Below are positions 12,089-49,876 of a DNA stretch of 64,000 nucleotides, one piece after another. The stretch is from Candidatus Scatonaster coprocaballi (GTDB lineage Bacteria > Bacillota > Clostridia > Saccharofermentanales > Saccharofermentanaceae). Made by a program: the position numbers and the translations under genes. The notes beneath the pieces were generated by a model that saw only the letters and a list, made by a program, of their open reading frames with translations, was not told where the DNA came from and did no database searches. The stretch is taken from the NCBI GenBank assembly GCA_018064475.1, contig JAGHVD010000013.1, forward strand, positions 9,206-73,205. The letters run 5' to 3'. How positions within the stretch are numbered: the stretch's first letter is position 1; every line of letters starts with the position of its first letter.

Positions 12089-12133
12089 GCTTCTCTGAAA
12101 ACGATTCCAAGAACAGCAACCTGTTCCCTCCTT

Positions 12134-12167: not shown

Positions 12168-12458
12168 GCAAATGAGAGAACAGGTTGCTGATCTTTGCCA
12201 CTCGTTCCTAGCCTCGCTGTACATGGTAAAATAACCTTGGCCGGTTCGGTGAGAGGGTGGGCTACATGACTATACTTTCCCAAGAAACCTTCTCATAGCA
12301 ATCCACCATTCATCGAGGTCCAAGATTTGTTCTGTTTACAGAAGTAACTTCTTATAGCAATGCAGTATAGCAAGTGCTTCCACCATCAGATTTTCGAGAA
12401 ATCCTTCATCTCGAAACAATAAGCAGTATATGAGTATGGAGATTTTTACTATGTTAAG

Positions 12459-13067: not shown

Positions 13068-13095
13068 GAGCTTCTAGATACAGAAGGAGACGCAT

Positions 13096-13884
13096 ATGAA
13101 GAAAACTAGGGTAGTTGTCTGCGTAATATTCGCAGTATTGTTGATATCATTTTCACTCTTTGTTTATAGAACTACACGCAATCCCTTTCCGGAAGAGAAA
13201 CGTGAGGCGGATGCATTATATGCGGAACTTCAGAGTATTGAATGTACTCAAGAATACAAAAGATGGGATGAAAAATACATAGCATCTGGGGAACAGATAT
13301 GTATCTGCCTATGGGGAGATTGTGATTTGCAAGACATATTTGAAATCTCAGAACGAGCGAACGAATATCTTGAAACTCATCCAGATTCAATCATTAATAC
13401 GAGAAATATGGGGGTGTGCATAGAATTTTTCGATCATGAACCGAGCAGACATGATTATGAACGATATCGTTATTATGCCTGTGTGACGAAGAATCCAGAT
13501 GATGCGTTGATTAGTGAATTTGATATGAAAGCTTCGGCACCAGTAGAAGTGACAGATTTCCGTAATTGCTCGGTTCCATATAACCGAATCGGATTAACAT
13601 ATGCAGCTGATTTTCGCGATTCAGAAGCGTTGTTGACTGTTGAGGGATTAACAATGGTAGCTGTTCATTATGAAGTAGGATGTTCGAAAGAAGACATGTT
13701 GAGGGTCTTACAGGAAGTATGCTACTACGATGAACACGATATAAATCTCGATTTTTCTTTCGGATTTGGAGTTGGATCCGATGCCGAATTAGAAAGAATA
13801 TACAACGATTTTGTAAAAGCCCATGCAGATTATAAGGTGTTTCAGGATGAGAATGGGGAGTTGTTCTTATACGATGAGAACTGA
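13096..13884 (+). CDS. hypothetical membrane-anchored/secreted protein
   Basis: N-terminal signal/TM (VVVCVIFAVLLISFSLFVY). AT-rich. RBS GAAGGAGA upstream. Confidence 0.45.
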   Translation: MKKTRVVVCVIFAVLLISFSLFVYRTTRNPFPEEKREADALYAELQSIECTQEYKRWDEKYIASGEQICICLWGDCDLQDIFEISERANEYLETHPDSIINTRNMGVCIEFFDHEPSRHDYERYRYYACVTKNPDDALISEFDMKASAPVEVTDFRNCSVPYNRIGLTYAADFRDSEALLTVEGLTMVAVHYEVGCSKEDMLRVLQEVCYYDEHDINLDFSFGFGVGSDAELERIYNDFVKAHADYKVFQDENGELFLYDEN

Positions 13885-13952
13885 GTGACTACGCCTAAAA
13901 AGGGTGGAGGTGCTTCTCGAGCCCCCGAGAATCATAAGTAAAGAAAGAAAAC

Positions 13953-14017
13953 CGTCTCCGACACGAGTTTCATTTTGCGAAGCAAAATGTTGTCTGAGTG
14001 TAGGAGACGATTTTTTC
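13953..14017. terminator. bidirectional rho-independent terminator; its stem includes the right copy of the inverted repeat
   Basis: Outer stem cgtctcc...ggagacg around inner hairpin cattttgc gaa gcaaaatg. T-runs follow on both strands (attttttct on +, gttttctttcttt on minus). It sits between the convergent genes 13096..13884 (+) and prfC (-). Confidence 0.65.
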
Positions 14018-21893: not shown

Positions 21894-24800
21894 ATGGAAA
21901 TAGCGTTTCACTGCCCCAATTGCTCGGCAGATCTAATATACGATGAGTCTAAGAAATATACATGTTGCTTCTGTCATACGGTGCTTACGCCGAAAGACGA
22001 GGTACTTGAACTTGAGGGTGGATATTACGTCGGTGATGCATGGAATGCAAGTTTGTACCATGGTTATCGTTGTGAGAATTGTAGTAGTGAATTCATTGCA
22101 AAAGAGTCGAATCATGTTGACTGCCCGATCTGTGCAAGCAGTTCGGTGAAGGATCTCGGCGCAGAAATCGGTGCAATGCCGAGAAGAGCCATTCCATTTA
22201 CACAGACCAAGGCCCAGGCCGAAGAAGTGTTCCTGGATTATATCCGTAACAATTCTGTTGTGGGTAAGATCATGGCGACGGAAGAGAATGCGTCGTTGCT
22301 TCGCCAAGTATATGTTCCAATGTGGGTCTTTAATTACGAAGTGATTGCGAATGTTCGTCTGAATGCGAACATTCGAAACAAAGCCAATGAGTCGACAACG
22401 ATTATGGGTTTCAATGTCCCAGGACAGATTATGGAGAGATTATCTCCAATCCGCTCTTCAATTTCGCGTTTCCAGCAGAATCGCAAAGGCGGCAAGGATA
22501 TGAGCGATATGCCTACCGAATATACAACTGGCGGTGTGCTTTCTTGGCAGGGGATTCCTTTCGATGCATCCGGAGTGCTGCCACCAACTGTGATGACGGC
22601 TTTGCAACCATATGACCATGCGAAGTTGGCAAAACTCAATGAACGTATTCTAGGCAATGCACCGATCCTTGCACTGACAAAGGATCCAATTGCCTCGATG
22701 GAAGAATTTATGGAGCGCATCAAGAAGTGGACACGTCAGATGATCATGGATGCCCATGCGGCTTCCTATGAGATTGTTCATTTCTCCGATAAGACAGATT
22801 ATCCGCTGGGTATCGGTGAACTGGTGCTTTTCCCAATTTGGTTCATGAAGTCTGAATACGAAGGTAGAGAATTCTTCTTTGCCATGAATGGTCAGAACGG
22901 CGAGGTAGAAGCCAAGATTCCAATGGCCAAGATGTCGAAGAAGTCCAATACGATCTCTTACCAGCAGTACTGGGACAAGGAACGCTGTGCAGCACTTCAA
23001 GATACACACTTTGAGTTCAACATACATGATCCGAATATTGAAATCCTGGATTACTCGTTCTTCGAGAAGCCGAAGAATTCTCGCGTGACGGCAGATGGCA
23101 GCAATGTGACGCCTAAAGGTGCAAGCCTTGATGATGTTCTGCCTGAAGAACCGGTAGAAGAGAAACCCAAGACCCCGGCGAAGACAGGACTTGAGGTGGA
23201 GAACCTAAGAACAGATAAGAAACTGACGAAGGAAGAAGAAGCCAAGCGTGCACGTGAAGTAACGGCCCGTCTGCGTGTTGCAGCCAAGGAGACACCGAAG
23301 GGTGATATGTCTGCAGCGGCAGAAGCGCCAAGTTGGGCGAAGGCGGTTACACCACCACCGGCTATGTCAAGTTCCAACCGTCCGGCTGCCAGAACATTGA
23401 AGCCGGCTGCAGAGCGTCCTGTCAGCAAAATCGCTGCTGCCAATAAGCCGATCTGGGAGAGAACGGAAGAAGAGGAAGAAGTGCTCAATAGTAAGCCGTT
23501 GACGTTGGCGGATCGCATTGCACAGACGAAGAATGTTGAGCCATCGTTCCCAGTAGAAGAGGCCCCTCAGCAAGAGATGGCAAGCCGTGGCATTGTTGCG
23601 GAAGTTGCGGCAATGAGGGAAGATAGAACTTCTGCGGAAGAGTATGAGGTACAGGCGAATACAATTGATTCTTCTGAAGACATCTACGAAGTACCGATGA
23701 CTACGGATCGCTTTGATGAGGAAGCTTATCAGGAGATCCCAATGCCAAAGGCTTATGTGGAGCAACCGGAAGAGAAGGAAGACGAATCCATTGTTGAGCC
23801 TCAAGAAGTGCCGGTCGATCAGACTTCAGAGAATGAGGATGAGGAGCTTATCTCAAATATTACATTCTCCTTCCCGAAGAAGAAGAAGTCTATGTATAGT
23901 GGAGAGCCGACCATGTCTGGTTCATCGATTCCGCGTCGCAACGAAGCAGAACCGGAAAAACCAAAGGGAATGGCAATCATGAATTCTGAGTACGAGTCCG
24001 GAATTCTGCCTAGCGGTTCACTTCACCGTGAAGAAGACGACGAAGTACGTGAAATCACGCCGAAGTTGAACGCGACAGAGAACTATATCGGTACAGATAA
24101 GAATGACCGCCCGCTTGCATCTCGCCCTGTAGCACCGCTTGCAAAACAGCGTGGCGATGTCTATGTAGAAGAAGTAGAAGTACATCCTGAGTTGGATGAG
24201 AACAATCGTCCGCTGGCCAAGAGACCGCCGGCCCCGTTGGCAAGAGTGACGGATGTAGAGCCAAGCTTGGAGTATTTGGCGGAACAGCCGCTGGATGATG
24301 ATATTCACCAGATGCCTTCCATTGAGAAACAGAAGTCCAGATGGGGTGACATGCCGCAGGCCGCTGAGACGCCAGCATGGGCCAAGCCACAGCAACCACA
24401 GCGCGCTACTCGTGATGATCGAGGGACTGCTTCCCGTGATGAGCGAATGACAGCTAGAATGGCTTCTCCGCGTGAGCGAGTCAGAAGACCTTCTCGTGAA
24501 GAACTGATGGCACAAGATCGTGCGCGTACAGAAAGTGCTGCGGCCCGTATGGGTGTGGATCTTCCTGAGAAAAAGCCACTAACAAGACCGGGTACAACTG
24601 CCCAGAATATGGGTCGCCCCGGTTCAAATCTGGATAAAGATGAGACCATGCGTGCTTCTCGCCCGGCATATATGGCTGCAGTAGAACAGCCGAAGGCAGT
24701 CGAGGAGTCACCGGAGGAAGAGGAAGTACGTCCGATTTCTTCCGCATTCCGTCCGGCAAATCGCCCCGCGTCAAACGCTTCCGAGGAGAGTCGCCCTGTA

Positions 24801-25808
24801 GCAGGCCGTCCGGGATCTGCTCGCCCTTCCGTTGCCAAAGAACCTCAGCAGAAGAGAGTACCGATTTGGGAACGTATGCCTGAGAATGATGGCTCAAGAC
24901 CACAGTGGGCAGCTACAACTGCTTATGAAGATGAACGCCCGAGAGGCTCGTTGTCTAAGCCGGCAGGACAGGTAATCGATGTAGAGAAGCCCAGAACCAG
25001 ACCTTCTGTGTGGAGACCGGATCCGGATGCTTCCGTCAAGGAAGTGCTACCGGGAAGCTTCAGTAGTGATGAAGGAGAAGTCCGTGAGGTTCCGCTACGC
25101 AGAGAAAGTGAAGAACCAAGAGAAGTGCCAGTGCGCCGTTCTTTTGTTGAACGTCAGGCCGTAGCGGAGAAGTCTTCTTCCAACGAAGAAGTAGAGGAGA
25201 TCATCCCACAGGTGAAGAAGCCGACGCGCCCTACTTCCGGTATTGAGGTAGAGATACCAAGCATTCCGAAGAAACAGCCACAGGTGATTCCTGTTGAAGA
25301 AGATGACGAGCTGGAGAAAAAACAGGAGTCTGTACTGGTGGAGCGAGTGGAGGCACCGGTTGAACAGCCAGTAGCACCAGTCGAGACCCCAGTCGTGCCG
25401 GAGAATCCAGTGAATGAACGCCCGCGTACTTTTGCCCAGCGTCGTCAGATGGAAGAAGAAGAGAGAAGACGTCAGATTCAGAGTTCTTTCGGAACAACGA
25501 ATACTCGTCCGGGTGCAAGCGCGCGCGCCGCAGCTTTCCAGCAGGAAGAGGAACAGCCGATCAACCGTACATTCGAGTCGACACAGTTTGAGAACAAACC
25601 TTCCGTAGTGGCTTCTTTGGATCAGTTACCACAGCCACTGGACGATGACAGCATTCATCATCTGGCGAAAGACGATAGCGTGCCGGCGCTCGCACGAGAG
25701 GTTGACCGTGTTCGCGATGGCGTGAAAGAAAGCGAGAAGAACGCACAGAGAGCGATTCGTGATCTTCCAGATTACGATCCAGACGGACCGAGTCCTTTCC
25801 GGAGATAA
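21894..25808 (+). CDS. uncharacterised zinc-ribbon family protein, paralog P1 (1304 aa): N-terminal CxxC zinc ribbons plus conserved core, then a ~900-aa E/P/R/A-rich low-complexity region and the C-terminal DLPDYDPDGPSPFRR tail
   Basis: CPNCSADL...CCFCHTV and CENCSS...CPICAS ribbons. Conserved blocks AIPFTQTKAQAEEVF, QVYVPMWVFNY and LFPIWFMKSEYEGREFFFAMNGQNGEV are shared with P2, P3 and P4. RBS AGGAGGG upstream. Confidence 0.7.
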   Translation: MEIAFHCPNCSADLIYDESKKYTCCFCHTVLTPKDEVLELEGGYYVGDAWNASLYHGYRCENCSSEFIAKESNHVDCPICASSSVKDLGAEIGAMPRRAIPFTQTKAQAEEVFLDYIRNNSVVGKIMATEENASLLRQVYVPMWVFNYEVIANVRLNANIRNKANESTTIMGFNVPGQIMERLSPIRSSISRFQQNRKGGKDMSDMPTEYTTGGVLSWQGIPFDASGVLPPTVMTALQPYDHAKLAKLNERILGNAPILALTKDPIASMEEFMERIKKWTRQMIMDAHAASYEIVHFSDKTDYPLGIGELVLFPIWFMKSEYEGREFFFAMNGQNGEVEAKIPMAKMSKKSNTISYQQYWDKERCAALQDTHFEFNIHDPNIEILDYSFFEKPKNSRVTADGSNVTPKGASLDDVLPEEPVEEKPKTPAKTGLEVENLRTDKKLTKEEEAKRAREVTARLRVAAKETPKGDMSAAAEAPSWAKAVTPPPAMSSSNRPAARTLKPAAERPVSKIAAANKPIWERTEEEEEVLNSKPLTLADRIAQTKNVEPSFPVEEAPQQEMASRGIVAEVAAMREDRTSAEEYEVQANTIDSSEDIYEVPMTTDRFDEEAYQEIPMPKAYVEQPEEKEDESIVEPQEVPVDQTSENEDEELISNITFSFPKKKKSMYSGEPTMSGSSIPRRNEAEPEKPKGMAIMNSEYESGILPSGSLHREEDDEVREITPKLNATENYIGTDKNDRPLASRPVAPLAKQRGDVYVEEVEVHPELDENNRPLAKRPPAPLARVTDVEPSLEYLAEQPLDDDIHQMPSIEKQKSRWGDMPQAAETPAWAKPQQPQRATRDDRGTASRDERMTARMASPRERVRRPSREELMAQDRARTESAAARMGVDLPEKKPLTRPGTTAQNMGRPGSNLDKDETMRASRPAYMAAVEQPKAVEESPEEEEVRPISSAFRPANRPASNASEESRPVAGRPGSARPSVAKEPQQKRVPIWERMPENDGSRPQWAATTAYEDERPRGSLSKPAGQVIDVEKPRTRPSVWRPDPDASVKEVLPGSFSSDEGEVREVPLRRESEEPREVPVRRSFVERQAVAEKSSSNEEVEEIIPQVKKPTRPTSGIEVEIPSIPKKQPQVIPVEEDDELEKKQESVLVERVEAPVEQPVAPVETPVVPENPVNERPRTFAQRRQMEEEERRRQIQSSFGTTNTRPGASARAAAFQQEEEQPINRTFESTQFENKPSVVASLDQLPQPLDDDSIHHLAKDDSVPALAREVDRVRDGVKESEKNAQRAIRDLPDYDPDGPSPFRR

Positions 25809-25821
25809 AGATCAATAAAGT

Positions 25822-27399
25822 ATGGAACACGCATGTTTTTGTCCCAGTTGCAGAGCAGAAATTATCCTCAATCAAGAGGAGATTTCTGCTTGCTGCTTTT
25901 GCGGAAAGAATCTAGAGGAATATACGAATCTTGAAAGTCAGCAAATTCTGGGAAGTTTCTTCGTACGAGAGGTGAACGGTTCAGAAAGGGAAACTGCGAT
26001 ATGCAGAAGCTGTCAGCGGACGATGATACTTCCGTCCACAGGAGGCTTACGCCCCAAAGTTTGCTTGTATTGTGGTGCACCAGATCTCTCATTTTCTTCA
26101 CAGCAAGTAACCTTACCGAATGAAGAGATCATGATTCCGTTTTCTGTTTCTAGAGAAGAAGCGGTTAAGACTTTTCAATCTGCGGTTCGTCATGACAGAA
26201 AGATTCTGGGCGGGTATACTTCTAAAACTAATCTTGAATCGATCACCCCAGTATACGTACCGTGCTTCTTTTTCAATTACCATGTATACGCCTCTGCCAT
26301 TCTGAGCGTCGTTCCGCGTGTGAAGGACGTCCGTGAGAATACAATTGGTAGCCGTATTTTTAGTGCGCTGGTGATGGAAGAGATCAACTTCAATTTGGAG
26401 CGGACTTCCAATGTTGCCCAGCCATATGACAAGAATACAGGTGGGGAAATGGCGTGGAAAGATATTCCCATTTTGGCAAGTACTGCCATTAGCCGTGAGC
26501 GCTTCTTTCAAATCTCACCGTTTTCCACCAAGAAACTGGGGGGGACGAAGACAGCGGTAGAGAAGCAACTGAGTGAGCAAGCCGTGATCTGTGCGCTGGA
26601 ACGTTCACCGGAAGAAATCACGAAAACCCTTCAGATGCTTGTTCGAGATTTTGTAAAAGAGTGCTTGGTGACGAATAATCTTGATCATTTCAAGATTACT
26701 TCTTTTGTGGATCAGACAGACTATCCGATGCCCGTCGGCCAGATGGTCTATGTACCAGTGTGGTGCGTGAAGATTCGAAAGAAGAACCAGTGTTTCAGCT
26801 GGTATATGAATGCGGTCTCCGCACAATTCTCACAAGCAGGTGTGGAGGAAAAAGACGAATCCATTTCTGTGCAGACATCTGCGCTTGAAGAAATGAGGAA
26901 GAAACGCATTAAGAAATTTTCTGAGGCTGATTTCCAGAAGAACAATCGACCGTTCAACTATCGTACCTATATGGTCGATGAGATGGCCTCAGCCATTTCT
27001 GCCGAGATGAAATTGAACGAGTGCGCCGCAGATAAGTCTCTTCTTCATCTGGAACGTACGACTCGCAGAAACATGAAGGAAATCACGGTGCCGATCGTGT
27101 CCTATGGATATCAGGCCGAAGCAGAAGAAGCGGTTAAGCGCGCGAAGATGGAACCGCTTCCAAGTAGCCCAGTAGAACTTCCTTCTACCCACTCGTATCT
27201 GTATACGATGAAAGAAGAGTCGATGAAGCGTTCTTTGGGACGAGGACAGCGGCTTCCTGAGAAACCGATGGATCGTCGTGTGGGAAATGAACACGAGTTC
27301 GATAACCAGGATAACTCCCATGAGTATATTGCCAAAGAACTCGGACTTGCCGATATCCCAGAGTATGATCCCAATGGACCGAATCCTTTCAAAAAATAG
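25822..27399 (+). CDS. uncharacterised zinc-ribbon family protein, paralog P2 (525 aa), with C-terminal DIPEYDPNGPNPFKK tail
   Basis: CPSCRAE...CCFCGK and CRSCQR...CLYCGA ribbons. Conserved blocks MIPFSVSREEAVKTF, VYVPCFFFNY and YVPVWCVKIRKKNQCFSWYMNAVS. The C-terminal tail motif matches that of P1. Confidence 0.7.
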   Translation: MEHACFCPSCRAEIILNQEEISACCFCGKNLEEYTNLESQQILGSFFVREVNGSERETAICRSCQRTMILPSTGGLRPKVCLYCGAPDLSFSSQQVTLPNEEIMIPFSVSREEAVKTFQSAVRHDRKILGGYTSKTNLESITPVYVPCFFFNYHVYASAILSVVPRVKDVRENTIGSRIFSALVMEEINFNLERTSNVAQPYDKNTGGEMAWKDIPILASTAISRERFFQISPFSTKKLGGTKTAVEKQLSEQAVICALERSPEEITKTLQMLVRDFVKECLVTNNLDHFKITSFVDQTDYPMPVGQMVYVPVWCVKIRKKNQCFSWYMNAVSAQFSQAGVEEKDESISVQTSALEEMRKKRIKKFSEADFQKNNRPFNYRTYMVDEMASAISAEMKLNECAADKSLLHLERTTRRNMKEITVPIVSYGYQAEAEEAVKRAKMEPLPSSPVELPSTHSYLYTMKEESMKRSLGRGQRLPEKPMDRRVGNEHEFDNQDNSHEYIAKELGLADIPEYDPNGPNPFKK

Positions 27400-36368: not shown

Positions 36369-36443
36369 CTATCTATTCATTCCCTCGTGTCATCATGATG
36401 CGAGGGAATTTTTATGCCATTTGCAAGGCGGACCAAAGAAGAA

Positions 36444-36692
36444 TTACGCTTCTTCGGATGAATGATCATGCGCCAGAATAACCGGATTTTTAAGGTCAGT
36501 AAGTGGGGTGTCGCGTTTGGCATCATCGATGTAGTGCGTGAAGTGGGTCTTCCCTAAACCGAAATGATGGAGCGTCGCTTTGCTATCCCCTAGGTTGTTC
36601 GATTTGTGGAGTAAGTAAGCCAAAATCGTGAGCGCAATACTGACACCCATTACAAGTCCGAATAGTATAGATATAGCAATCTTCCAAGACAT
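36444..36692 (-). CDS. small single-pass membrane protein S1, partner of zinc-ribbon paralog P3
   Basis: TM helix, then LLHKSNNLGDSKATLHHF and NPVILAH. Strong RBS GGAAGGAGAA inside the 3' end of the upstream gene. Paralogous to 37753..38073. Confidence 0.6.
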   Translation of the reverse strand: MSWKIAISILFGLVMGVSIALTILAYLLHKSNNLGDSKATLHHFGLGKTHFTHYIDDAKRDTPLTDLKNPVILAHDHSSEEA

Positions 36693-36694
36693 AC

Positions 36695-37762
36695 TTACGC
36701 TTCTCCTTCCTGACGATTGTTGACATACTCATGTAGAGGGTTCGCGCAAGTGCGGCGGATGGAAGCGATGATTCTTCGAATCTTCCTTGCGCTGAGTATG
36801 ATGTACCCAATCACGACCAGAAAAAATGCTGTAATATATCCACTAAACGCGCCAAGTAGATCTCGCTTTTGAATGGAGAGAACACCCCAAGAAATAAAGA
36901 AGCAAATGATTGAGAAGCAGAGCGTCAGCGCGACCATAAGTAGCCAGAAACGCTTCTTGTCCCATGGCAAGCCGGCAACTACTTTGCCGGTTTGGCCATT
37001 TACGATGAGCGTATACGGCTGATCCTGATATCGGATCGTTAGAAACCATGCTGGAAGCAAGACAATCTTGAGTGGATCATATATTTCCGCACGGTAGCGT
37101 TCGGCGACGATAACTGGTTTCGGAGCCCCTTCGATGCTTTCTGCAATCGATCTGTTATAGGCATCTCGTGCTTGGGATTTTGCAATTTCCTTTGCATCTT
37201 CGATCTGCATGTCGGGCATATCCGCATAGTGCCCGACGAGATAGTTCTCATTAAAATCCTCCAGTTTCTCAAGATGGTAAGGCTCAATGCGCTGGGACAG
37301 CTCATTATCTATGACCTTCGAAGCATCCGTTGTCACATTCGGCATGGATGCGTAAGCGGAACGTAAGCGATAAGGATTGTCTTTCTGTGAAGCGCAGAAG
37401 AGTATGGAAGAATCGTATTCCACATGTGACACATAGTAGGGGATGTAGATACTCCGCAACTGTTCCGACTGGATTTTCTTGATTTCTTTCGGAATGAAGC
37501 ATCCTTGGTGGAGTCGCTCCGTGACAAGCTTCAGTGCTTTTTCCTTTGTCACGGTAAAAGGAAGGATAGAATCCGGCCGCCTCATTTTGCCAATACGAGA
37601 GAACAGAAGGGTAGGGTTTCCACAGTATATGCAGAACGTGGAAACTTCGGTATCTGTAACAGAAATCTCGGCGCCACAGGCACTGCAAGCATAGAAGTTT
37701 ACATCTAGAAACTCGTAGATAAGTCTTCCTGCACAATTTTTACATGTTTTATTCATTCCCAT
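36695..37762 (-). CDS. uncharacterised zinc-ribbon family protein, paralog P3 (355 aa), C-terminal double TM anchor
   Basis: CKNCAGRLIY...CSACGAEI and FCIYCGNP ribbons. Conserved blocks ILPFTVTKEKALKLV, SIYIPYYVSHVEY and LLPAWFLTIRYQDQPYTLIVNGQTGKV. Two C-terminal TM helices. Confidence 0.7.
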   Translation of the reverse strand: MGMNKTCKNCAGRLIYEFLDVNFYACSACGAEISVTDTEVSTFCIYCGNPTLLFSRIGKMRRPDSILPFTVTKEKALKLVTERLHQGCFIPKEIKKIQSEQLRSIYIPYYVSHVEYDSSILFCASQKDNPYRLRSAYASMPNVTTDASKVIDNELSQRIEPYHLEKLEDFNENYLVGHYADMPDMQIEDAKEIAKSQARDAYNRSIAESIEGAPKPVIVAERYRAEIYDPLKIVLLPAWFLTIRYQDQPYTLIVNGQTGKVVAGLPWDKKRFWLLMVALTLCFSIICFFISWGVLSIQKRDLLGAFSGYITAFFLVVIGYIILSARKIRRIIASIRRTCANPLHEYVNNRQEGEA

Positions 37763-38073
37763 CTTCTCCGATGACGTGCTTCATGGCTCTCTGATGATTG
37801 GAGAGCTTGTTCACTTTGCTTCTTGGCCGCTATTTCCTCCCGATGTGCGAGAATGATCGGGTTAGAAGTAGGGGGAAGCGGCGTGGAGTCCGGATTAATA
37901 TTGTTCCAGGATTTCCGCCCCTGAAAATGACCTTGATCCGAGAAATCAGCCAATCCCGCTCTTGAGTCACCAAAATTATTGGAACGTTCGAGCAAGGAAG
38001 CAACGATATAAAGCGCAAGACCAATGCCTAATGGGATGGCAAAAAGTAAAGCGAGTACCATTTCTACACTCAT
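37753..38073 (-). CDS. small single-pass membrane protein S2, partner of zinc-ribbon paralog P4
   Basis: Start at MSVEMVLALLF behind GGAGA. TM helix, then LLERSNNFGDSRAGLADF and NPIILAH. Paralogous to S1. Confidence 0.6.
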   Translation of the reverse strand: MSVEMVLALLFAIPLGIGLALYIVASLLERSNNFGDSRAGLADFSDQGHFQGRKSWNNINPDSTPLPPTSNPIILAHREEIAAKKQSEQALQSSESHEARHRRRWE

Positions 38074-38074
38074 G

Positions 38075-39271
38075 TTAGTCTCCTTTCTGTCTCTTACTGA
38101 CGAAAGAGATGAGAGAATTCTCTGTGACACGTGAAATAGAAGCCAAGACTTTGCGGATCTTACTGATACCAGCAGAGAATGCAGCCACAATGGCGGCTAT
38201 GATCAGGCCGATGAGTTTGCCTTTTGTTTTGCTGGAGTTCCGCGTGTGCTTGGCATGGACAAGTACATAGAATAGTCCATAGAAGATGAACGTGGCTGCT
38301 ACGGCAAATACGATGGAGAGTAACACGACCAAGGCGACAAAAATTGCTTTGTTCCATGGCATGCCGCCGACGGTTTTGCCGGTCTGACCATTTACGACGA
38401 TGGTGTATGGCTTATCTTTGTACCGGAGTGTCAAGAACCATGCCGGGAGCATGACCAGCTTCGGTTCCTCGTAGATCTCGCCTGCAAATACATTACGGTA
38501 GAAATGGGCATTCGAGCCAAATTCCGAGAGAACTTTCTCATCCACCGCTTCGTGTGCACGCTGCTTGGCCATTTCCTTCGCTTCGAGACGATTGATATCC
38601 GCTTGGTCAGAATAGAAACCAAGGAGATAGTTCTCGTTGAATTCTTCAAGTTCTTTCAGACGATAAGGCTCTACTCTTTGTGAAAGATTGTCAGAGAGCA
38701 TGGTGGAGGCATCCGTAGACACGTAGGGCATCGATGCGTATCCAGCGCGTATATGATAGTGCGTGCTACTTCTTTTGCCATTTGAAGTGGTCACGGCAAC
38801 GACTACTCTGGAATCCGTCTCAACCTTCGTTACATAGTACGGAATATAGATTCCACGCATCATCTCAGGTTCGAAGTTCTTGATGGACCTAGGTACGAAG
38901 AATCCCTTATTTAGATGTTCGCGTACGGATCGAAGCGCGTCTTCTTTGGAAATGGTAAAAGGCAGGATGGCATCCGGCTTCTTCATCTTTCCTACACGGG
39001 ATAAGATGACATTCGGATTTCCACAGTAGATACAGAAAGTCGACGCTTCTGTGTCGGTTACAGAAATCTCAGCACCGCACGAACTACAAGCGAAGATGTT
39101 CACATCGAGCATCTCGTCTTCTAGGTTGTCGGAATTCTTATCGTCTGTTGAAGAAGACAAGTTCTCATAGGCACTGATTGGAAAGATCGTGCCGCAGCTT
39201 CCACAAGACAGACCGTGCTTCTGGACATCATAGATGAGTCTGCCGGCGCAATTTTTGCAATTTCGAATCAC
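38075..39271 (-). CDS. uncharacterised zinc-ribbon family protein, paralog P4 (398 aa), C-terminal double TM anchor
   Basis: GTG start behind AGGAGGAT. CKNCAGRLIY...CGSCG and CSSCGAEI / FCIYCGNP ribbons. Conserved blocks ILPFTISKEDALRSV, GIYIPYYVTKVE and MLPAWFLTLRYKDKPYTIVVNGQTGKT. Two C-terminal TM helices. Confidence 0.7.
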   Translation of the reverse strand: MIRNCKNCAGRLIYDVQKHGLSCGSCGTIFPISAYENLSSSTDDKNSDNLEDEMLDVNIFACSSCGAEISVTDTEASTFCIYCGNPNVILSRVGKMKKPDAILPFTISKEDALRSVREHLNKGFFVPRSIKNFEPEMMRGIYIPYYVTKVETDSRVVVAVTTSNGKRSSTHYHIRAGYASMPYVSTDASTMLSDNLSQRVEPYRLKELEEFNENYLLGFYSDQADINRLEAKEMAKQRAHEAVDEKVLSEFGSNAHFYRNVFAGEIYEEPKLVMLPAWFLTLRYKDKPYTIVVNGQTGKTVGGMPWNKAIFVALVVLLSIVFAVAATFIFYGLFYVLVHAKHTRNSSKTKGKLIGLIIAAIVAAFSAGISKIRKVLASISRVTENSLISFVSKRQKGD

Positions 39272-39595
39272 TTTCTTATCCTCCTGAGTTGGAACACAGT
39301 GACTGTTCTTTTTAGTCAGAATGCTTCTTTAGGAATGAATTCCAATCGAATGATTCTATTATACAGTACTGCAAGTCGGATTCACGTGTCTTCTAATAGA
39401 AATATCCCGCGGATTGTGCAGAGAAGACAGGCAATAACAGAGGATAATTTGTTTGCTTCTGAAATCTTGAACCACAAGGAGAAATCCAAGTAGAAAACTT
39501 GAAACTTTGCCTGATTTCCATATAATAGATGTGTCGAATGATTAGATACATCTATTTCCATTTTACAATGTGAAATATACTTCAGGAGGAACATT

Positions 39596-42199: not shown

Positions 42200-42356
42200 T
42201 CTTTCTCACTTATTCCCCAGACAAGTCTTTCTTCCGAGGAAGAAACCTTGAGCTTGATGCTTGAAGCGCTGTACAGAATGAGACAAAAAGTAAAGAAGAC
42301 TTGCATTTTGAAAAAAAAAAAATAGAATTATAGAAGTTTGATTTGGGAGGATGACT

Positions 42357-43214
42357 ATGAACAAGAGAATTAAGAATGCGGTGATATGTGGCTTGGTAGC
42401 GTTAGTTACTTTTGTGAACTCAGTTTCGATGATGAAATCACAGAAACAGGCAGCGACGACGACTTACAATCAAGACAAAGTGAAAAGTAACATTTACGCA
42501 CAAGCGAAAGTTGTATGGGATATAGAAGCCGATATTACAGTGAGTGAAAAGAGCGATAAAACAGTTAGTTATAAGAAAAATACTTGGTATCAGGGTATGC
42601 CATATACTCAGTTAGCAGATTATTCGCTGAAAGACTTTGCTTCCTGTTGTTGTATGCATAATGTGCAACGTAGTAAGGTGACTGAAACTAACCTGCTGAG
42701 TAGAAGTTATTTAGTTCAAATTGATCTCAGAAAGTTTGATGGTTGCAAAAATCTAAGAATAGGCAACGACTGTTCGACTGCTGTAGCTGTAGCATGGAGA
42801 TCCTGTAACAATTCTTTACGGATTGAAGATATTGATACTTCCACATTCTTAAGTTGTGCAAAGAGTGGTAGTTATAGCACCTACCATTTGAAAACAGTTG
42901 GGGGCTATAGTATTGGTTCATATACTGATACAAAATCATTTTTGAGCAAAAATGAAAATAAGAGTATAATAAAAAACTGTTATGCTAAACTCAAAATTGG
43001 TGATGCCGTATTCTATAGATCTGGTGGCAAAGGGCACGCTATGATGGTAGTGGCTACCGGAAGCAATTGTGTTTATGTAATTGAACAGTGTGGCCTCAGC
43101 GATAAAAGAACAGTACAACGAACATCATGGGAAGTTGAGAAAAAGTACACATACGATGATCTTATTAAAAGTGGATATCTACCAATTTATAGTACTGATG
43201 TGAGGAAGTCATGA
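42357..43214 (+). CDS. hypothetical secreted protein, possible papain-fold cysteine peptidase/amidase
   Basis: AT-rich. N-terminal signal peptide. Candidate Cys (NDCSTAVAVAW) and His (GGKGHAMMVVATG) pair. RBS GGGAGG. Confidence 0.45.
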   Translation: MNKRIKNAVICGLVALVTFVNSVSMMKSQKQAATTTYNQDKVKSNIYAQAKVVWDIEADITVSEKSDKTVSYKKNTWYQGMPYTQLADYSLKDFASCCCMHNVQRSKVTETNLLSRSYLVQIDLRKFDGCKNLRIGNDCSTAVAVAWRSCNNSLRIEDIDTSTFLSCAKSGSYSTYHLKTVGGYSIGSYTDTKSFLSKNENKSIIKNCYAKLKIGDAVFYRSGGKGHAMMVVATGSNCVYVIEQCGLSDKRTVQRTSWEVEKKYTYDDLIKSGYLPIYSTDVRKS

Positions 43215-45517
43215 GCGAGAGCAACATGAAACGAAAATTAGCCGTTGGGCTAGTCATCATTATGCTATTGGGTATATTGCCTAGTTGCTCACTCTCTCAG
43301 AGCAAGCGTGAGGTCGGAAATGGGGACTCGAGTAAGGAAATGTCACTCTCTATTTCTCAAAGCAATCTTTCCGAGCAGTATTTTCAAGCCGTAGATATGA
43401 TAAGTGGCGTGGACCAAGCAGATACTGCACACAGAATTCTGGGTGCCGCTTTGTCAGCAAACGAGGAGTTTCTCTTTGTTTCATCTGACGAGTGTATCTC
43501 GGTCGAACGGTATGATCAAGAGGGATTGTTTATTTCTAGTTTCTCACAAGAGACTCCATATGTGTATGACAATGGAGGTCGAGGTTTCTACGAAGAAGGA
43601 CGACTGTTTTTTGCCGGATTCTTTGGGCCGATGATGGATGTGTATGAAGTGAATCTGGAGAAAGAGGAAATGAGTAACATCATCCATGTTGATTTGTCGA
43701 AGGATGTTGAGCAACAAGGCTTTTTTCTTAGAGTAATTGGTTTTCGTCATTCTGTTGTATATGCGATGGTGTTGAATGACTTTGGACAAGTAATGATTGG
43801 CTACAGCATTGAAACAGGAGAAGAAGTTTTCCGAACGAAATCGGGTATATCTGGAAACAAGTTCTTCTGGATTCAGGATCAGTTATATGCCTATAATACT
43901 GAAAGAATGCCTAAACAACTTTGGCAAGTTGATGCTGATGGGCAAGGCTCACAAATTCAGAACGAGCAGGACAATGTGAAGTGGGAGGAGTTCTGTTTTG
44001 AAAATGGGAGACAGTTAGTCAGGGATACGGATGGTATTTGGTTCTTTGATGAACGGGGCGTACTTACAAATCTTGTTTCGTTTGCGAATTCCGAGGTGAA
44101 TAGTACGATGCTACTTTCGAATGCTTGTTTTGCAGTTTCTAATCAACTTGACCGCGTGGTACTCTTTGATATCGAAGGAAGAGCGAGTCTTCTGTTTCCT
44201 GGGGAGGGCGACGCGAAAGATAAACAGACGTTGACGCTTGCTTGTGTGGATGCCTCGGGTTCAGAATGGTTGAATTGGGCAATCTATAAGTTCAATAAAG
44301 AGAATGAAGATTACAGAATCGTCTTGAAAGATTATTATTGTTCTATTGATGAGACGAAGTACTTGGATGAAGATGGTGATGTCGATTACTCTGCGGTATA
44401 TGATGCTTCGGAAGAATTGCTTTGGAAGGATGTGGTTTCCGGCCAAGGACCGGATCTGATTCTTCGAGAGAATGGAATCGGGGATAAGATAGGTTCTGCT
44501 TATTTGGACAATTGTGGTTTTATTCAGGATTTGTACCCCCAGTGGTGTGAAGAGAGCGAGGAGTGGAAACAACAGTTTATGTCCCCACTATTTACGCAGG
44601 TTCAGCAACAAGGCAGACTGATGAGTGTGCCAATCGGTATGATGCTCATGTCGGTTGAACTCAATTCGAGATGTGCATTGAGCGAGTGTGGAACGTACAA
44701 AGATACATATAACTATCTTGAAAGTGCATCTGATATTCGCTTCCTTACATGGACGACGAAGGAAGCGTACTTGAAGAAGATGCTTGCGATGGATATGGAT
44801 AGTTTTGTAAATCGAGATCTCAATCAAGCAAATTTCGATAGCGAAGCATTTCAGTACTTACTTTGTCTTTGTAACGAGTATTGTATGTCAAACGAAGAGG
44901 CTGAGATGATTTACGATGAATCAATCATGTTATTCCGAGAGTCGGTAGATGGAGAAGGAGGGAACAACTACCTGACTTATACATATCGACCGATAACAAA
45001 TACTGAGAAACGCAAGAGTGAAACAGGTGTAGTGAGTGGGTATCCTATGGGCCACGAGTGTGACGCATGTGTCGATTATTCCTATCTGATTTCTATTTCA
45101 TCTGCATGCCGGAATAATGTGGCGGCATGGGACTTTATCAAGTACATGTTAAGTGAAGAAGTCCAAAGATACACACCGGATTGGCTTGGTTGCCCTTATT
45201 CACCAATGGTGCGGCGAGATGTTCTTTCTGAGATGATGGATTGCTATGAACATCCGGAAGATCATATGGATTATTGGGATGCTGGTGGTGAATGGGATAG
45301 TGATGTTCTAGGACTGAACAGCTATTCAGAAGATGAGATACAAAGTTTCTTGGATTTCTTTGATTCAACACATCACTTTTACTATTATGATATAGAAATC
45401 ATCGATATAGTGTTGGAAGAATCTGCCCATTATTTCTCAGGAAATAAAGATATGGATAGTGTTGTGCAAACGATAAACAATCGGGTCCAAGTGGTATTGG
45501 ACGAACGTGATTCGTAA
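43211..45517 (+). CDS. large hypothetical lipoprotein with a solute-binding-protein-like C-terminal region
   Basis: Lipobox LLGILPSCS. The C-terminal AAWDFIKYMLSEEVQ block is typical of family-1 extracellular solute-binding proteins. AT-rich. Distant paralog of 56558..58951. Confidence 0.5.
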   Translation: MSESNMKRKLAVGLVIIMLLGILPSCSLSQSKREVGNGDSSKEMSLSISQSNLSEQYFQAVDMISGVDQADTAHRILGAALSANEEFLFVSSDECISVERYDQEGLFISSFSQETPYVYDNGGRGFYEEGRLFFAGFFGPMMDVYEVNLEKEEMSNIIHVDLSKDVEQQGFFLRVIGFRHSVVYAMVLNDFGQVMIGYSIETGEEVFRTKSGISGNKFFWIQDQLYAYNTERMPKQLWQVDADGQGSQIQNEQDNVKWEEFCFENGRQLVRDTDGIWFFDERGVLTNLVSFANSEVNSTMLLSNACFAVSNQLDRVVLFDIEGRASLLFPGEGDAKDKQTLTLACVDASGSEWLNWAIYKFNKENEDYRIVLKDYYCSIDETKYLDEDGDVDYSAVYDASEELLWKDVVSGQGPDLILRENGIGDKIGSAYLDNCGFIQDLYPQWCEESEEWKQQFMSPLFTQVQQQGRLMSVPIGMMLMSVELNSRCALSECGTYKDTYNYLESASDIRFLTWTTKEAYLKKMLAMDMDSFVNRDLNQANFDSEAFQYLLCLCNEYCMSNEEAEMIYDESIMLFRESVDGEGGNNYLTYTYRPITNTEKRKSETGVVSGYPMGHECDACVDYSYLISISSACRNNVAAWDFIKYMLSEEVQRYTPDWLGCPYSPMVRRDVLSEMMDCYEHPEDHMDYWDAGGEWDSDVLGLNSYSEDEIQSFLDFFDSTHHFYYYDIEIIDIVLEESAHYFSGNKDMDSVVQTINNRVQVVLDERDS

Positions 45518-46474: not shown

Positions 46475-46748
46475 GGATAAGTCCTCTTTCGTGTTCGTAG
46501 CCTGTGCCTCGCACGGACTGATATTGTTTACATTATACCCTTAATACAGAGTAACCTCTATATTTTTCAGAAGGAATCGTTCTCGAGATATGCGAAGACG
46601 AACGCTCGAAGAGAAAGCAAGTGCTTTTCCCGACGATACAGCGGAATAGAACTTCTATTTTGGTAAAACCATCGCTCGAACTTTCTTGACGGTCATGTGA
46701 CCGTGTGATAAGATTGTGCCAAGATTACGATTGAAAGGAGGATGGATC

Positions 46749-47276
46749 ATGGGTGTGATGCTTCCCGGTACATTTATCGAAGTTTCACCGGAGAAATTGA
46801 AGAACGTGGATGAGATCCTTTCGCCAATGTTTCTTCTGGAAGGTATGCAGCTTCGACAGATCACGCAGTTGCTCGGTGTGGAAGCGCACACGGTACAGAA
46901 TTGGGTGAAGCGCGGATTCGTAGAATCACCGGTTCGCAAGATGTACGACCGAGATCGTTTTGTCAGGCTGGCGTTGCTGAATTACTTGAAAGACGTTTTC
47001 TCGTTGGAAGGAATTCTCGAGATACTGAGCATGGCCGGGCACCAGGATAACGAAGTGTACAAAGCGTTCTGCGCATTGATGGCACTTGCTCCGGTAGACC
47101 CGATCCGAGCGGAGACGAAACTGAATGACATCATCGATCGGGCGGTGGAAAATGGTGATTTCAATTACCAGCAGACATCGAAGCAACAGGTCGCGAAGAT
47201 GATGACGATCCTGTACACCGCACATTTATCAATCGTAATGAAGAAGGAAGCCGAACGGCTCTTGCAAGAGATTTGA
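46749..47276 (+). CDS. DUF1836-like HTH domain protein
   Basis: ...MQLRQITQLLGVEAHTVQNWVKRGFVESPVRKMYDRDRFVRLALLNYLKDV... fits the DUF1836 signature as I recall it. Start at MGVML behind AAAGGAGG. Confidence 0.45.
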   Translation: MGVMLPGTFIEVSPEKLKNVDEILSPMFLLEGMQLRQITQLLGVEAHTVQNWVKRGFVESPVRKMYDRDRFVRLALLNYLKDVFSLEGILEILSMAGHQDNEVYKAFCALMALAPVDPIRAETKLNDIIDRAVENGDFNYQQTSKQQVAKMMTILYTAHLSIVMKKEAERLLQEI

Positions 47277-47289
47277 AAAGAGGAACATT

Positions 47290-48336
47290 ATGAAATTCTT
47301 AATGGATTGGTTTGAAGCGTTGAATCTGCCTGAACAGATTTTTGCCTGCATCGCAGTTGCATTTAGCGTTCTTCTGATTTTACAGTTTGTACTGCTTATG
47401 ATCGGCGCGGCGTCCCACGCAGGCGATATGGATGGTCACGATATGGGTGGCGGCGATGGTCACGACTTCGGTCACGGCCACGACATGGGTCACGATGTCG
47501 GTCATGACATGGGCCATGATATTGGACATGATATTGGACACGATGTCGGCCACGACTTTGGCCATGATGTCGGCCATAGTATCGGACATGGCGATTTCGG
47601 TCAACCACATGGTGACTTCGGTCACGACGCGGGTCACGATTTCGGCCATGATGTGGGTCACGATATTCATCAAGAAATATTGACGCATGATGGATCTTAC
47701 GATTACAATCATGATATGGACGCCGGCCACGATCACATCGGCCATGTCGCGCACGAGTTTGCCGAGATTCAGGACGGAATCGTGGTGGATGTTCATAGCG
47801 GTGATATCTACTTGGCTGAGGCGCTCCCTCATGTACCGATGGTCAACGGACCGGACGTAGGTATTCCGGATCAGGATCTTCCGGATGGAAGAACATACGT
47901 GGACAGAGCAGACCATGTACATGGTTCGGGATTCAGACTCTTTACGATGCAGGGTATCATTGCATTTTTCTGCATCTTCGGTTGGTCGGGACTCCTGTTC
48001 CTGAAGGGCGGATTACCCGTCTGGGGCGCAAGCCTTCTTGCATTTGTCTGCGGCTTTGCCGCACTGTTCCTGATGGGACTGGCGCTTTGGGGCATGCAGA
48101 AGATCCAATCGGATGGAACATTGAATGTGAAATACGCGCTGGGCCGTTCCGGAGAAGTGTACATTCCGATTCCGGGACAGCGCAAAGAACCCGGCAAAGT
48201 GATGGTAGAAGTCCAGGACCAGCTGATGGAATTTGAGGCGGTCACGGACGAGGATGAGAAGATCCCCACCGGTACACAGGTGACGGTGATCGGTATAACA
48301 AAGGGTACAACACTGATTGTGACCAAACATAGTTAA
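47290..48336 (+). CDS. NfeD-like membrane protein (stomatin/flotillin partner) with an internal His/Asp-rich (GHDx)n repeat
   Basis: N-terminal TM. About 20 consecutive G-H-D-[MVIF] units. A second TM pair. C-terminal OB-fold NfeD block (...GRSGEVYIPIPGQRKEPGKVMVEVQDQLMEFEAV...TQVTVIGITKGTTLIV). Sits immediately upstream of a flotillin gene. Confidence 0.65.
   Translation: MKFLMDWFEALNLPEQIFACIAVAFSVLLILQFVLLMIGAASHAGDMDGHDMGGGDGHDFGHGHDMGHDVGHDMGHDIGHDIGHDVGHDFGHDVGHSIGHGDFGQPHGDFGHDAGHDFGHDVGHDIHQEILTHDGSYDYNHDMDAGHDHIGHVAHEFAEIQDGIVVDVHSGDIYLAEALPHVPMVNGPDVGIPDQDLPDGRTYVDRADHVHGSGFRLFTMQGIIAFFCIFGWSGLLFLKGGLPVWGASLLAFVCGFAALFLMGLALWGMQKIQSDGTLNVKYALGRSGEVYIPIPGQRKEPGKVMVEVQDQLMEFEAVTDEDEKIPTGTQVTVIGITKGTTLIVTKHS
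47434..47665 (+). repeat. imperfect 12-bp tandem repeat encoding the (G-H-D-x)n tract
   Basis: ggtcacgatgtc / ggtcatgacatg / ggccatgatatt ... repeated about 19 times in frame. Confidence 0.7.
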
Positions 48337-48355
48337 TTATAGGAGGAAGTTGAAA

Positions 48356-49876
48356 ATGCCATTTGAAGTAATTTGCTTAATTGTTGTGATTGCTGTTCTG
48401 GTATTTACGTTGTTTCTGATTTTCTTGTCTAGGTACAGAAAATGTCCGTCTGACCGTATCATGGTCATCTACGGTAAAGTTGGTAAGAATGCCGACGGAA
48501 CCGCACGCTCATCCAAGTGTATTCATGGTGGTGCGGCATTCGTATGGCCGGTCATTCAGTCCTATCAGTATTTGGACTTGACCCCAATCTCCATCGCTGT
48601 CGATCTTCGTTCTGCACTTTCCCGTCAGAACATCCGTATCGACGTACCGTCTATCTTTACAGTAGGTATTTCGACAGAACCCGGTGTCATGCAGAACGCT
48701 GCTGAGCGTCTCCTCGGCCTCAAGCTTTCTGAGATTCAGGAACTTGCGAAGGATATCATCTTCGGTCAGCTCCGTCTGGTTATCGCGACCATGGATATCG
48801 AGGAGATCAACACCGACCGTGATAAGTTCCTCGAGGCTGTTTCCAGAAACGTGGAGACAGAGTTGAAGAAGATCGGTCTTCGTCTGATCAACGTAAACGT
48901 TACAGATATCAGCGATGAGTCCGGATACATCAGCGCACTTGGTAAGGAAGCTGCTGCAAAGGCAATCAACGACGCGAAGAAGAACGTTGCGGAGAAAGAA
49001 AGAGACGGTTCTATCGGTGAGGCTTTGGCCCAGAAGGATCAGCGTATCCAGGTTGCATCTGCAAACTCCATGGCTATCCAGGGTGAGAACCAGGCAAAGA
49101 TTGAAGTTGCAAATTCTGAGGCTGTACGTCGTGAGAAAGCCGCTGAGGCGATGAGACTTGCTACCGCAGCTGAGAAAGTTCAGGCAGCTAAAGCACTTGA
49201 AGAAGCATACGCAGCAGAGAAGGAAGCTGAGCTTTCCCGTTCCGCTCGTGAGAAGGCTACCCTCGAAGCCGACGTTATCGTTAAGGCTGAGATCAGTAAG
49301 CGAGAGATGGAACTTGCTGCGGAGGCACAAGCTGAGAAGATCAGAAGACAGGCAGCCGGTGAAGCAGACGCGATCTACGCGAAGATGGAAGCTGAAGCTC
49401 GTGGTATGCAGGAGATCTTGACCAAGCAGGCTGCGGGTTTCGAGAAGATCGTTGCAGCAGCCGGTGGTAATGCTAAGGATGCAATGATGCTCATGTTGGC
49501 AGACAAGATGGAGCAGCTCATGAAGATCCAGGTAGAAGCAATCCGCGATCTGAAGATCGACAAGGTTACTGTTTGGGACAGCGGCGCAGGTGCCGGTGGA
49601 GATGGCAAGAGCTCTACCGCAAACTTCATCTCCGGTCTCATGAAGAGTGTCCCGCCGATGAACGAGATTTTCGAGATGGCTGGTATGCAGTTGCCGGATT
49701 ACCTCGGTAAGAAGATGGGAGACTCTGCAGAAGTTGCAGAAACTGCTGAACCGGAGAAGACCGAAACTTATGAAGCGAAGGCTGACGTAGCCGTTGCACC
49801 GGTAGTAGACACCGATTCGGAAACAGGAGCTGAGGTAGTGAGTGCCAAGGATATTACTCCTTATAACGGGTATTAA
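48356..49876 (+). CDS. floT: flotillin-like SPFH/band-7 protein (FloT/YuaG-like)
   Basis: N-terminal membrane hairpin. SPFH domain. Long Ala/Glu-rich coiled coil (AEAMRLATAAEKVQAAKALEEAYAAEKEAEL). About 507 aa. ATG 48356 behind AGGAGG. Confidence 0.8.
   Translation: MPFEVICLIVVIAVLVFTLFLIFLSRYRKCPSDRIMVIYGKVGKNADGTARSSKCIHGGAAFVWPVIQSYQYLDLTPISIAVDLRSALSRQNIRIDVPSIFTVGISTEPGVMQNAAERLLGLKLSEIQELAKDIIFGQLRLVIATMDIEEINTDRDKFLEAVSRNVETELKKIGLRLINVNVTDISDESGYISALGKEAAAKAINDAKKNVAEKERDGSIGEALAQKDQRIQVASANSMAIQGENQAKIEVANSEAVRREKAAEAMRLATAAEKVQAAKALEEAYAAEKEAELSRSAREKATLEADVIVKAEISKREMELAAEAQAEKIRRQAAGEADAIYAKMEAEARGMQEILTKQAAGFEKIVAAAGGNAKDAMMLMLADKMEQLMKIQVEAIRDLKIDKVTVWDSGAGAGGDGKSSTANFISGLMKSVPPMNEIFEMAGMQLPDYLGKKMGDSAEVAETAEPEKTETYEAKADVAVAPVVDTDSETGAEVVSAKDITPYNGY

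Follow-up and report, generated by a model that had tools for sequence, protein, structure and literature searches.

A duplicated gene pair encoding YdjG/SamG-like zinc-ribbon proteins and small membrane partners in Candidatus Scatonaster coprocaballi

The P4–S2–P3–S1 gene cluster

We analysed a 64,000-nucleotide stretch of DNA from Candidatus Scatonaster coprocaballi (contig JAGHVD010000013.1), referred to here as the window. On its minus strand, at positions 36444–39271, four co-directional and tightly packed genes are found in the order P4–S2–P3–S1. P4 and P3 (collectively P) encode large zinc-ribbon proteins with a membrane anchor, S2 and S1 (collectively S) small proteins with a single transmembrane (TM) helix. 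By sequence and architecture, the large proteins are clear homologs of YdjG (SamG) of Bacillus subtilis, and nearly every P copy in the related clostridial loci is accompanied by S. The cluster and the adjoining non-coding DNA contain the following features:

38075–39271, minus strand: P4, 398 residues, GTG start, AGGAGG Shine–Dalgarno sequence
37753–38073, minus strand: S2, 106 residues, small single-pass partner of P4
36695–37762, minus strand: P3, 355 residues (353 if the start is at 37756), second YdjG/SamG-like paralog
36444–36692, minus strand: S1, 82 residues, small single-pass partner of P3
36379–36409, no strand assigned: hairpin with a 14-bp G+C-rich stem followed by a T-run, from a consensus scan, between the convergent S1 and PPK2 genes
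39272–39595, minus strand: intergenic region of 324 bp upstream of P4, common to the divergent aconitase gene

The whole P–S module is duplicated as a unit. A preliminary description, made from the DNA letters alone, had proposed such a duplication; all four of its open reading frames (ORFs) were found, the products of P4 and P3 being 43% identical (E 6e-114) and those of S1 and S2 about 40% (E about 1e-13). Every motif it had quoted (ILPFT..,.IYIPYYV, LPAWFLT..VNGQTGK, LL..SNN.GDS and NP.ILAH) is present in both copies.

A Shine–Dalgarno-like sequence lies ahead of each of the four genes. The P4/S2 junction reads TAA-C-ATG, i.e. the two genes are separated by 1 nucleotide (nt) and not joined by an ATGA overlap, as had been described. 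An ATGA overlap of 4 nt is found at the S2/P3 junction if translation of P3 begins at its second ATG (37756), and it is this ATG that matches the start of the P3 ortholog, which begins MNKTC.... With the first ATG of P3 the overlap amounts to 10 nt as reported before, and the gap of 2 nt between P3 and S1 is likewise as reported.

Upstream of P4, a TG-TATAAT element without a good −35 box was read at 39358–39365 on the minus strand, which may be the P4 promoter. The hairpin at 36379–36409, a pattern match, was called by the scan on the plus strand only, with the T-run downstream of PPK2; its position suggests that it is used on the minus strand as well and probably closes the P4–S2–P3–S1 unit as a terminator. 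The genes flanking the unit are housekeeping genes. The arrangement aconitase–[four-gene operon]–PPK2 is kept in close relatives, and a more distant genome (L084) shares the flanking synteny but has no four-gene block at that position.

Relationship of P to YdjG/SamG and linkage of P to S

By tblastn searches of plasmid and megaplasmid records, P homologs of 22–27% identity (E down to 5e-30, coverage 78–92%) were found in Enterococcus gallinarum, Vibrio coralliilyticus, Comamonas, Tsukamurella and Paracoccus. An SPFH-domain gene immediately precedes the P homolog in all five inspected non-clostridial loci, and in Enterococcus a TPM-domain gene comes next after it. Since this corresponds to the gene content of the B. 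subtilis pspA–ydjGHI operon, P was compared with YdjG, whose sequence comes from a B. subtilis-type contig with pspA, ydjG, ydjH and ydjI that was found via the published ydjG forward primer (PMC8581546). P4 and YdjG are 26% identical over 318 residues (BLASTP, E 6e-37). The alignment spans P4 residues 5 to 305 and includes both ribbons, residue for residue, and the whole core, which argues against a similarity confined to the zinc ribbons. Alignment of the P family profile with YdjG by hhalign gave a probability of 100% (E 1e-43, 313 columns). In the window, a tblastn search with YdjG detected P4 (E 1e-34), P3 (2e-23) and two soluble paralogs described below, P1 (9e-23) and P2 (1e-8; a separate comparison of P2 with YdjG gave 4e-10). 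YdjG also matched P in 83 of 83 related loci.

The BLASTP and hhalign results place P in the YdjG/SamG family, of which P4 and P3 are, as judged by sequence and architecture, clear but divergent members. The large protein thus does not belong to an uncharacterised family, as had been assumed, and it has been matched with confidence to a family with a known partner. The module is thereby less novel, though still new in S and in the loss of the SPFH, TPM and PspA partners. According to a published description (PMC11237479), YdjG consists of two zinc ribbons, an NTF2-like domain related to YpeB, and a TM segment. The YdjG-type central domain is homologous to the P core, and the C-terminal TM anchor with a cytoplasmic N-terminal bulk is present in P as a variant with two TM helices.

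In P4, zinc ribbon 1 contains C5, C8, C23 and C26, and zinc ribbon 2 C62, C65, C80 and C83. The core (about residues 88–306) is followed by a TM hairpin (about 308–339 and 347–372) and a basic C-terminal helix (..KRQKGD), conserved in the P family as ...K.R.V..SI..T....L..FV.KRQ.G. AF2 modelling of P4 gave pLDDT values of 79.6 (full protein) and 89.7 (core). Hydropathy and AF2 model agree on two C-terminal TM helices in P and one in S, in line with the preliminary description, and on a topology of P in which the N-terminal bulk is cytoplasmic and precedes the hairpin and the basic helix. The best PDB matches to the core model were weak; YpeB, YpmB and PepSY were among them, in keeping with the literature, where YdjG is called ‘related to YpeB’ (PMC11237479). 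The conserved columns of P revealed no catalytic-type residues besides the zinc ligands.

No family in Pfam, NCBIfam, PADLOC or PHROGs was recognised in the core, so that the earlier statement that it could not be assigned holds for curated profile libraries; matches of P were restricted to weak zinc ribbons, and comparison of the P profile with PDB sequences likewise gave ribbon matches only. Extra N-terminal domains in the longer members of the P family were considered and rejected, as these differ only by a long linker between the two ribbons.

Two zinc ribbons had been ascribed to each large protein. Both are present in P4, whereas P3 has ribbon 2 and half of ribbon 1. Compared with its ortholog P0001 (391 residues, 89% identical), P3 carries an in-frame deletion of 38 residues, which removed the second CxxC of ribbon 1; from ribbon 2 through the core and TM hairpin to the C-terminal helix, the protein is intact. 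The P3 ortholog in the same operon is intact (391 residues) in L096 and L098, and is split into ORFs of 184 and 216 residues in L097.

The association of P with S was analysed by collecting 80 genomic loci and inspecting the DNA just downstream of every P copy. An S-like ORF follows P at −23 to +14 nt in about 100 of 102 P copies (83 related loci), a pattern far beyond chance. As a reverse check, a search with the S profile yielded 195 unnamed small proteins. Four of these, encoded on long contigs, were looked up, and in all four a P gene is located 1–3 nt upstream of S. Further, a mirror-tree comparison of P with the first 50 residues of S (90 pairs) gave a correlation of r = 0.70, the maximum in 300 label permutations being 0.13. 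The linkage of P and S is obligate or near-universal, and the two proteins co-diverge. The adjacency of P and S homologs in other genomes, expected for the coherent two-gene unit that had been proposed, is found in both directions, and the unit is conserved.

A protein search with P3 identified 567 relatives, all of them from rumen and gut Clostridia: Saccharofermentans, Butyrivibrio, and metagenome-assembled genomes (MAGs) of Lachnospiraceae and Ruminococcaceae/Oscillospiraceae. Among 1.84 billion representatives, the P profile detected 9631 clusters (50% identity) at E <= 1e-3, which indicates a large superfamily, and 2758 at E <= 1e-30. P–S pairs also commonly occur in tandem arrays, with seven pairs in L065, at least four in L082 and three in L043. 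The long head-to-tail arrays sit in Lachnospiraceae and Saccharofermentans MAGs, and the S proteins of L065 and L082 are only 54–62 residues long.

Clustering of 916 ORFs from 85 loci served to look for further partners. Recurrent neighbours were rejected as such, since they reflect only sporadic lineage-specific synteny; they comprise a MacB/FtsX-type ABC transporter (about 12 loci), GGDEF proteins, phenylacetate-CoA ligase and AraC regulators. The transporter, an ATPase and a permease of ~790 residues, is encoded directly upstream of P–S in two P–S subfamilies which differ in gene order (the loci include L014, L019, L022, L024, L028, L035, L047, L052 and L054).

In S2, an N-terminus described as acidic or short precedes a TM helix that shows a G..xG.G.A pattern; the sequence LLERSNNFGDS follows next to the membrane, and then a polar tail with NPIILAH. 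The corresponding motifs of S1, for which a 98%-identical cluster (P0319) was found, are LLHKSNNLGDS and NPVILAH; NP[VI]ILAH is common to S1, S2 and their closest relatives. The S-like ORFs downstream of P share the N-terminal helix with G..xG.G.A and the motif L-x-[KR]-S-N-[ND]-x-G-[DN]-S. An N-out/C-in topology is predicted for S because, in the window and across homologs, the region preceding the helix is acidic and the residues directly after it are basic (K/R). The tails are very variable, largely of low complexity and 52 to 387 residues long, and recurrently end in peptides such as ..D[IV]PLFKPL, ..FPRSFHDV, ..RPLWEN..DDFSDF.DM and ..N[IV]xWHK. S has no matching family in Pfam, NCBIfam, PADLOC or PHROGs and appears to be a previously undescribed small membrane protein.

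An ORF with an S-like layout was also seen in Tsukamurella (L094, 4589–5023, 144 residues), directly downstream of SPFH and YdjG-like genes. In its product, a short N-terminus and one TM helix are followed by the sequence ..LVRNSRRQ.. and a polar tail. The occurrence of small single-pass partners may thus not be limited to Clostridia.

The two soluble paralogs that had been noted nearby are encoded on the opposite strand. They are related to the P–S module and lie outside it:

21894–25808, plus strand: P1, 1304 residues, soluble, zinc ribbons and YdjG-like core at about residues 1–365
25822–27399, plus strand: P2, 525 residues, soluble, conserved C-terminal peptide

The P1 tail, 939 residues long, is an acidic low-complexity sequence rich in Pro, Ala and Glu (14% Glu, 11% Pro) and ends in the conserved peptide DLPDYDPDGPSPFRR. 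The C-terminal peptide of P2 is GLADIPEYDPNGPNPFKK, the conserved end of P2 reading DIPEYDPNGPNPFKK; the consensus GL[AS]D[LIM]PE[YF]DPxGPxPFKK is near-invariant in 34 P2 homologs. L084, with a P2 that is 44% identical, shows synteny for the P1–P2 pair and the genes around it. As a comparable tail is fused to the same core in P1 and P2, there is a Rosetta-stone-like hint that core and tail act together.

Elsewhere in the window, two overlapping ORFs at 42351–45517 on the plus strand encode proteins of 287 residues (with a signal-peptide-like N-terminus) and 768 residues without a Pfam match. The G+C content of this block is 40%. In L096, a close relative, the block does not occur between the genes for aconitase and the alpha/beta-hydrolase, and it is therefore probably a strain-specific insertion. 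A second dip in G+C content is located at 12001–14000 (0.40, compared with about 0.49 for the rest of the window).

Possible role of the P–S pair

The membrane-anchoring role of YdjG in the PspA–YdjGHI complex, a phage-shock and flotillin-like complex for envelope stress, has been studied experimentally (PMC8581546; bioRxiv 10.64898/2026.02.06.704340). Under envelope stress, YdjI (an SPFH protein) and the ESCRT-III-like PspA are brought to the inner membrane face by YdjG acting together with the TPM protein YdjH, a function known so far from B. subtilis genetics and microscopy (PMC8581546; bioRxiv 10.64898/2026.02.06.704340). YdjG and YdjH are interacting membrane proteins and are needed for the membrane foci of YdjI and PspA (PMC8581546). 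In a 2026 preprint the three Ydj proteins were renamed SamG, SamH and SamI, and SamGH was proposed to be a stress-sensing membrane complex restrained by SamI (bioRxiv 10.64898/2026.02.06.704340).

By analogy with YdjGH, we lean slightly towards P–S being a sub-membrane scaffold with a role in envelope maintenance or signalling. P would retain the cytoplasmic module of two ribbons and a YpeB/PepSY-related domain, with the TM hairpin and a basic amphipathic helix serving as anchor. The tiny N-out/C-in S protein would take the place of a TPM protein as obligate co-anchor. In such a heteromeric membrane complex, the S helix with its glycine-zipper-like pattern would pack against the P hairpin, and the invariant juxtamembrane K/R-S-N-N-x-G-D-S would dock on the cytoplasmic part of P. 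The variable, disordered S tail with its short C-terminal peptide would recruit soluble client proteins to the membrane. Apart from the two or three helices of P and S, everything is predicted to be located in the cytoplasm, and each P–S pair would form a sub-membrane assembly platform for membrane or cell-envelope maintenance or for signalling. The ‘membrane stress or signalling system’ considered in the preliminary description fits the homology to YdjG and may, by the same analogy, include a function in envelope stress.

Several observations weigh against this scaffold. The window and the 83 loci with 6-kb flanks were searched by tblastn with YdjH, YdjI, PspA and three other SPFH proteins. 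No match was found next to P–S in the window, and no YdjH/TPM, YdjI/SPFH or PspA within 6 kb of P in 83 of 83 loci. The operon linkage to SPFH, TPM and PspA, a system-level feature of YdjG, is thus not found for P, and the function known from B. subtilis may not transfer. A pattern search of the intergenic region upstream of P4 did not reveal a stress-type promoter (sigma-W-type TGAAAC-N16-CGTA). S was also considered as a YdjH that has lost its TPM domain, and this was rejected: hhalign of the S profile against YdjH and the Enterococcus TPM protein gave probabilities of only 0.5–1.3%. The relation between S and YdjH is therefore treated as an analogy, homology being unsupported. Finally, P3 looks like a gene that is decaying or under relaxed constraint in some strains; its deletion here and the split gene in L097 indicate that at least the second copy is dispensable.

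Few components of the PspA/SPFH envelope-stress machinery of Gram-positive bacteria are as poorly understood as YdjG/SamG, and Pfam still lacks a model for its central domain. The P–S pair of rumen and gut Clostridia represents a natural minimal version of the YdjG system, separated from the known partners. It could reveal what the YdjG-like core does alone and what binds it, and could be used to test whether recruitment of SPFH and PspA is an ancestral or an added function. With this assignment, thousands of proteins from gut and rumen metagenomes that are listed as ‘hypothetical’ or ‘zinc ribbon’ can also be annotated.

A more far-reaching idea, which we put forward tentatively, is that P–S is an offshoot of YdjG independent of SPFH, TPM and PspA and works as a modular array of membrane adaptors. 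The core would serve as a common chassis, and each S tail would recruit a different cytosolic client. Tails of the FKPL, FPRSF, RPLWEN..DDFSDF, WHK and NP.ILAH types would then address different clients, tandem arrays of up to seven pairs would diversify these, and P1 and P2 would be the non-anchored counterpart. If true, the idea would amount to a novel principle by which bacteria organise proteins at their membrane.

The tails bear on a further alternative as well. P–S might spatially organise cell-wall synthesis or division, with the tail peptides docking on a cytoskeletal or divisome hub in the manner of the FtsZ C-terminal peptide. The terminal peptides on S, P1 and P2 (D-[ILV]-P-x-[FY]... 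and ...[PIV]-F-[KR]-[PKR]) stand at the end of long disordered linkers and may resemble the C-terminal peptide of FtsZ or the tip of SSB. After alkaline shock, B. subtilis cells that have lost ydjG or ydjH are misshapen (bent or bulged) and their peptidoglycan synthesis is mislocalised, defects not shown by pspA and ydjI mutants (PMC8581546). However, no division or cell-wall gene was recurrently linked in the neighbour clustering of 85 loci, and S1 and S2 of the window do not carry an FKPL-type peptide. We regard this alternative as unlikely.

Still less probable is a role as a chaperone adapter, in which Hsp70-type chaperones would be directed to a membrane site or a client labelled by the YdjG-like core. 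The idea derives from a comparison of the core model with BFVD. The only strong non-bacterial fold matches were two giant-virus proteins annotated as ‘DnaJ-like subfamily C member 3’, from Yasminevirus (A0A5K0UBJ7, E 1e-8, TM-score 0.60, 256 columns) and Edafosvirus (A0A3G4ZSZ8, E 6e-7). The annotation suggests that J-domain fusions of the YdjG-like fold may exist outside bacteria, and the band-7/TPM proteins associated with PspA have been proposed to be chaperone-like in assembly (PMC11237479). However, the J domain of the viral proteins is putative, as judged from the annotation, and neighbour clustering did not detect dnaK, dnaJ or grpE near any locus.

A conflict system, i.e. phage defence or exclusion or the toxin/immunity-like pair suggested earlier, was considered in view of the amplification and the hypervariable S tails, which could reflect an arms race. 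The tandem arrays in L065, L082 and L043, the absence of the four-gene block from L084 and a weak PADLOC match of the P2 ribbon region (PDC-S64, E 5e-5) would be consistent with it. It is nevertheless very improbable. No toxin signature and no nuclease, protease or NTPase domain was found, and conserved catalytic-type residues are missing; neither the core nor S belongs to a PADLOC or PHROG family; no relatives were detected on IMG/VR viral contigs; the operon lies between housekeeping genes and is stably inherited in close relatives; and P is homologous to the anchor of a housekeeping stress complex. No support was found for toxin/immunity in particular. In a phage collection, the matches are unannotated contigs labelled Listeria, Enterococcus or ‘Bacteriophage sp.’, of putatively viral origin.

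That P is a membrane-tethered regulator, coupling a membrane signal to gene expression by DNA or RNA binding of TFIIB-type ribbons, hardly deserves credence: weak Pfam matches to TFIIB and RNA-polymerase-type ribbons, a ribbon type ‘known to bind DNA’ (PMC9239133) and the global transcriptional changes seen when SamGH is unrestrained (bioRxiv 10.64898/2026.02.06.704340) are in its favour, but protein binding is a generic property of zinc ribbons, P3 of this genome retains an otherwise intact reading frame although half of its ribbon 1 is missing, no helix-turn-helix or sigma/anti-sigma partner was found, and no family member is known from direct evidence to bind nucleic acids.

Comparison with known membrane systems

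The scaffold proposed for P–S resembles, in general layout, other pairs of bacterial membrane proteins. PspB and PspC are small inner-membrane proteins of the Psp response which are paired at the inner membrane face and recruit a soluble effector. The likeness to P–S lies in this use of a small bitopic pair in the Escherichia coli inner membrane; there is no sequence or fold relation of PspB/PspC to P or S, and neither PspA nor PspF is encoded here. The SPFH–NfeD pairs (YuaF–FloT, QmcA–YbbJ) similarly consist of a membrane scaffold protein and a dedicated membrane partner, without homology to P or S. Such a pair is encoded in the window itself:

46716–49876, plus strand: operon for a DUF1836/MerR-like protein, an NfeD-like protein (348 residues) and a FloT-like Band_7/SPFH protein (508 residues)

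The distance between the NfeD–FloT operon and the P4 operon is 9 kb in this window and about 6 kb in L096. The NfeD–FloT operon was rejected as a partner of P–S, being a separate transcription unit that is not found near P–S in the 83 other loci.

A closer parallel is YdjH (SamH), which is encoded right after ydjG as S is after P. The last TM helix of YdjH runs from outside to inside and is followed by a low-complexity cytoplasmic tail, the sole cytoplasmic part able to contact YdjI or PspA; the topology predicted for S is alike. In contrast to YdjH, S lacks a TPM domain, a signal peptide and any extracytoplasmic domain, and the K/R-S-N-N-x-G-D-S motif is particular to S. In L026, L036, L051 and L070, S tails ending in ..FPRSF(HDV) occur. 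The tails of TPM co-anchors end in ..GSRGSF and ..GGGRSF (YdjH of L093, Enterococcus L089), and YdjG ends in ..GGGF. S tails, TPM co-anchors and YdjG may thus have a C-terminal aromatic peptide in common, a similarity without statistical support.

The closest relative is YdjG/SamG itself. YdjG and P agree in the pair of zinc ribbons at the N-terminus, the homologous central domain and the membrane anchor at the C-terminus; both are mostly cytoplasmic and share the motifs V/ILPF..sK.EA, Y(I/V)P(F/Y)W and LLP(V/A)W....NGQTGKV.G.P. Both are encoded alongside a second membrane protein, which is YdjH in the one case and S in the other (PMC8581546; PMC11237479). The anchor differs: YdjG and the homologs from Enterococcus, Vibrio, Comamonas and actinobacteria have one C-terminal TM helix, whereas P has a hairpin followed by a basic helix. 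The neighbours differ as well, PspA, TPM and SPFH proteins in the case of YdjG, and S, tandem amplification and soluble paralogs with disordered tails in the case of P. The literature mentioning YdjG, YdjH or YdjI, as far as it was covered, contains no description of a clostridial P–S variant. With its hairpin anchor, its S partner, the loss of the SPFH, TPM and PspA partners, its tandem arrays and its soluble tail-bearing paralogs, the clostridial variant of the YdjG system appears to be new.

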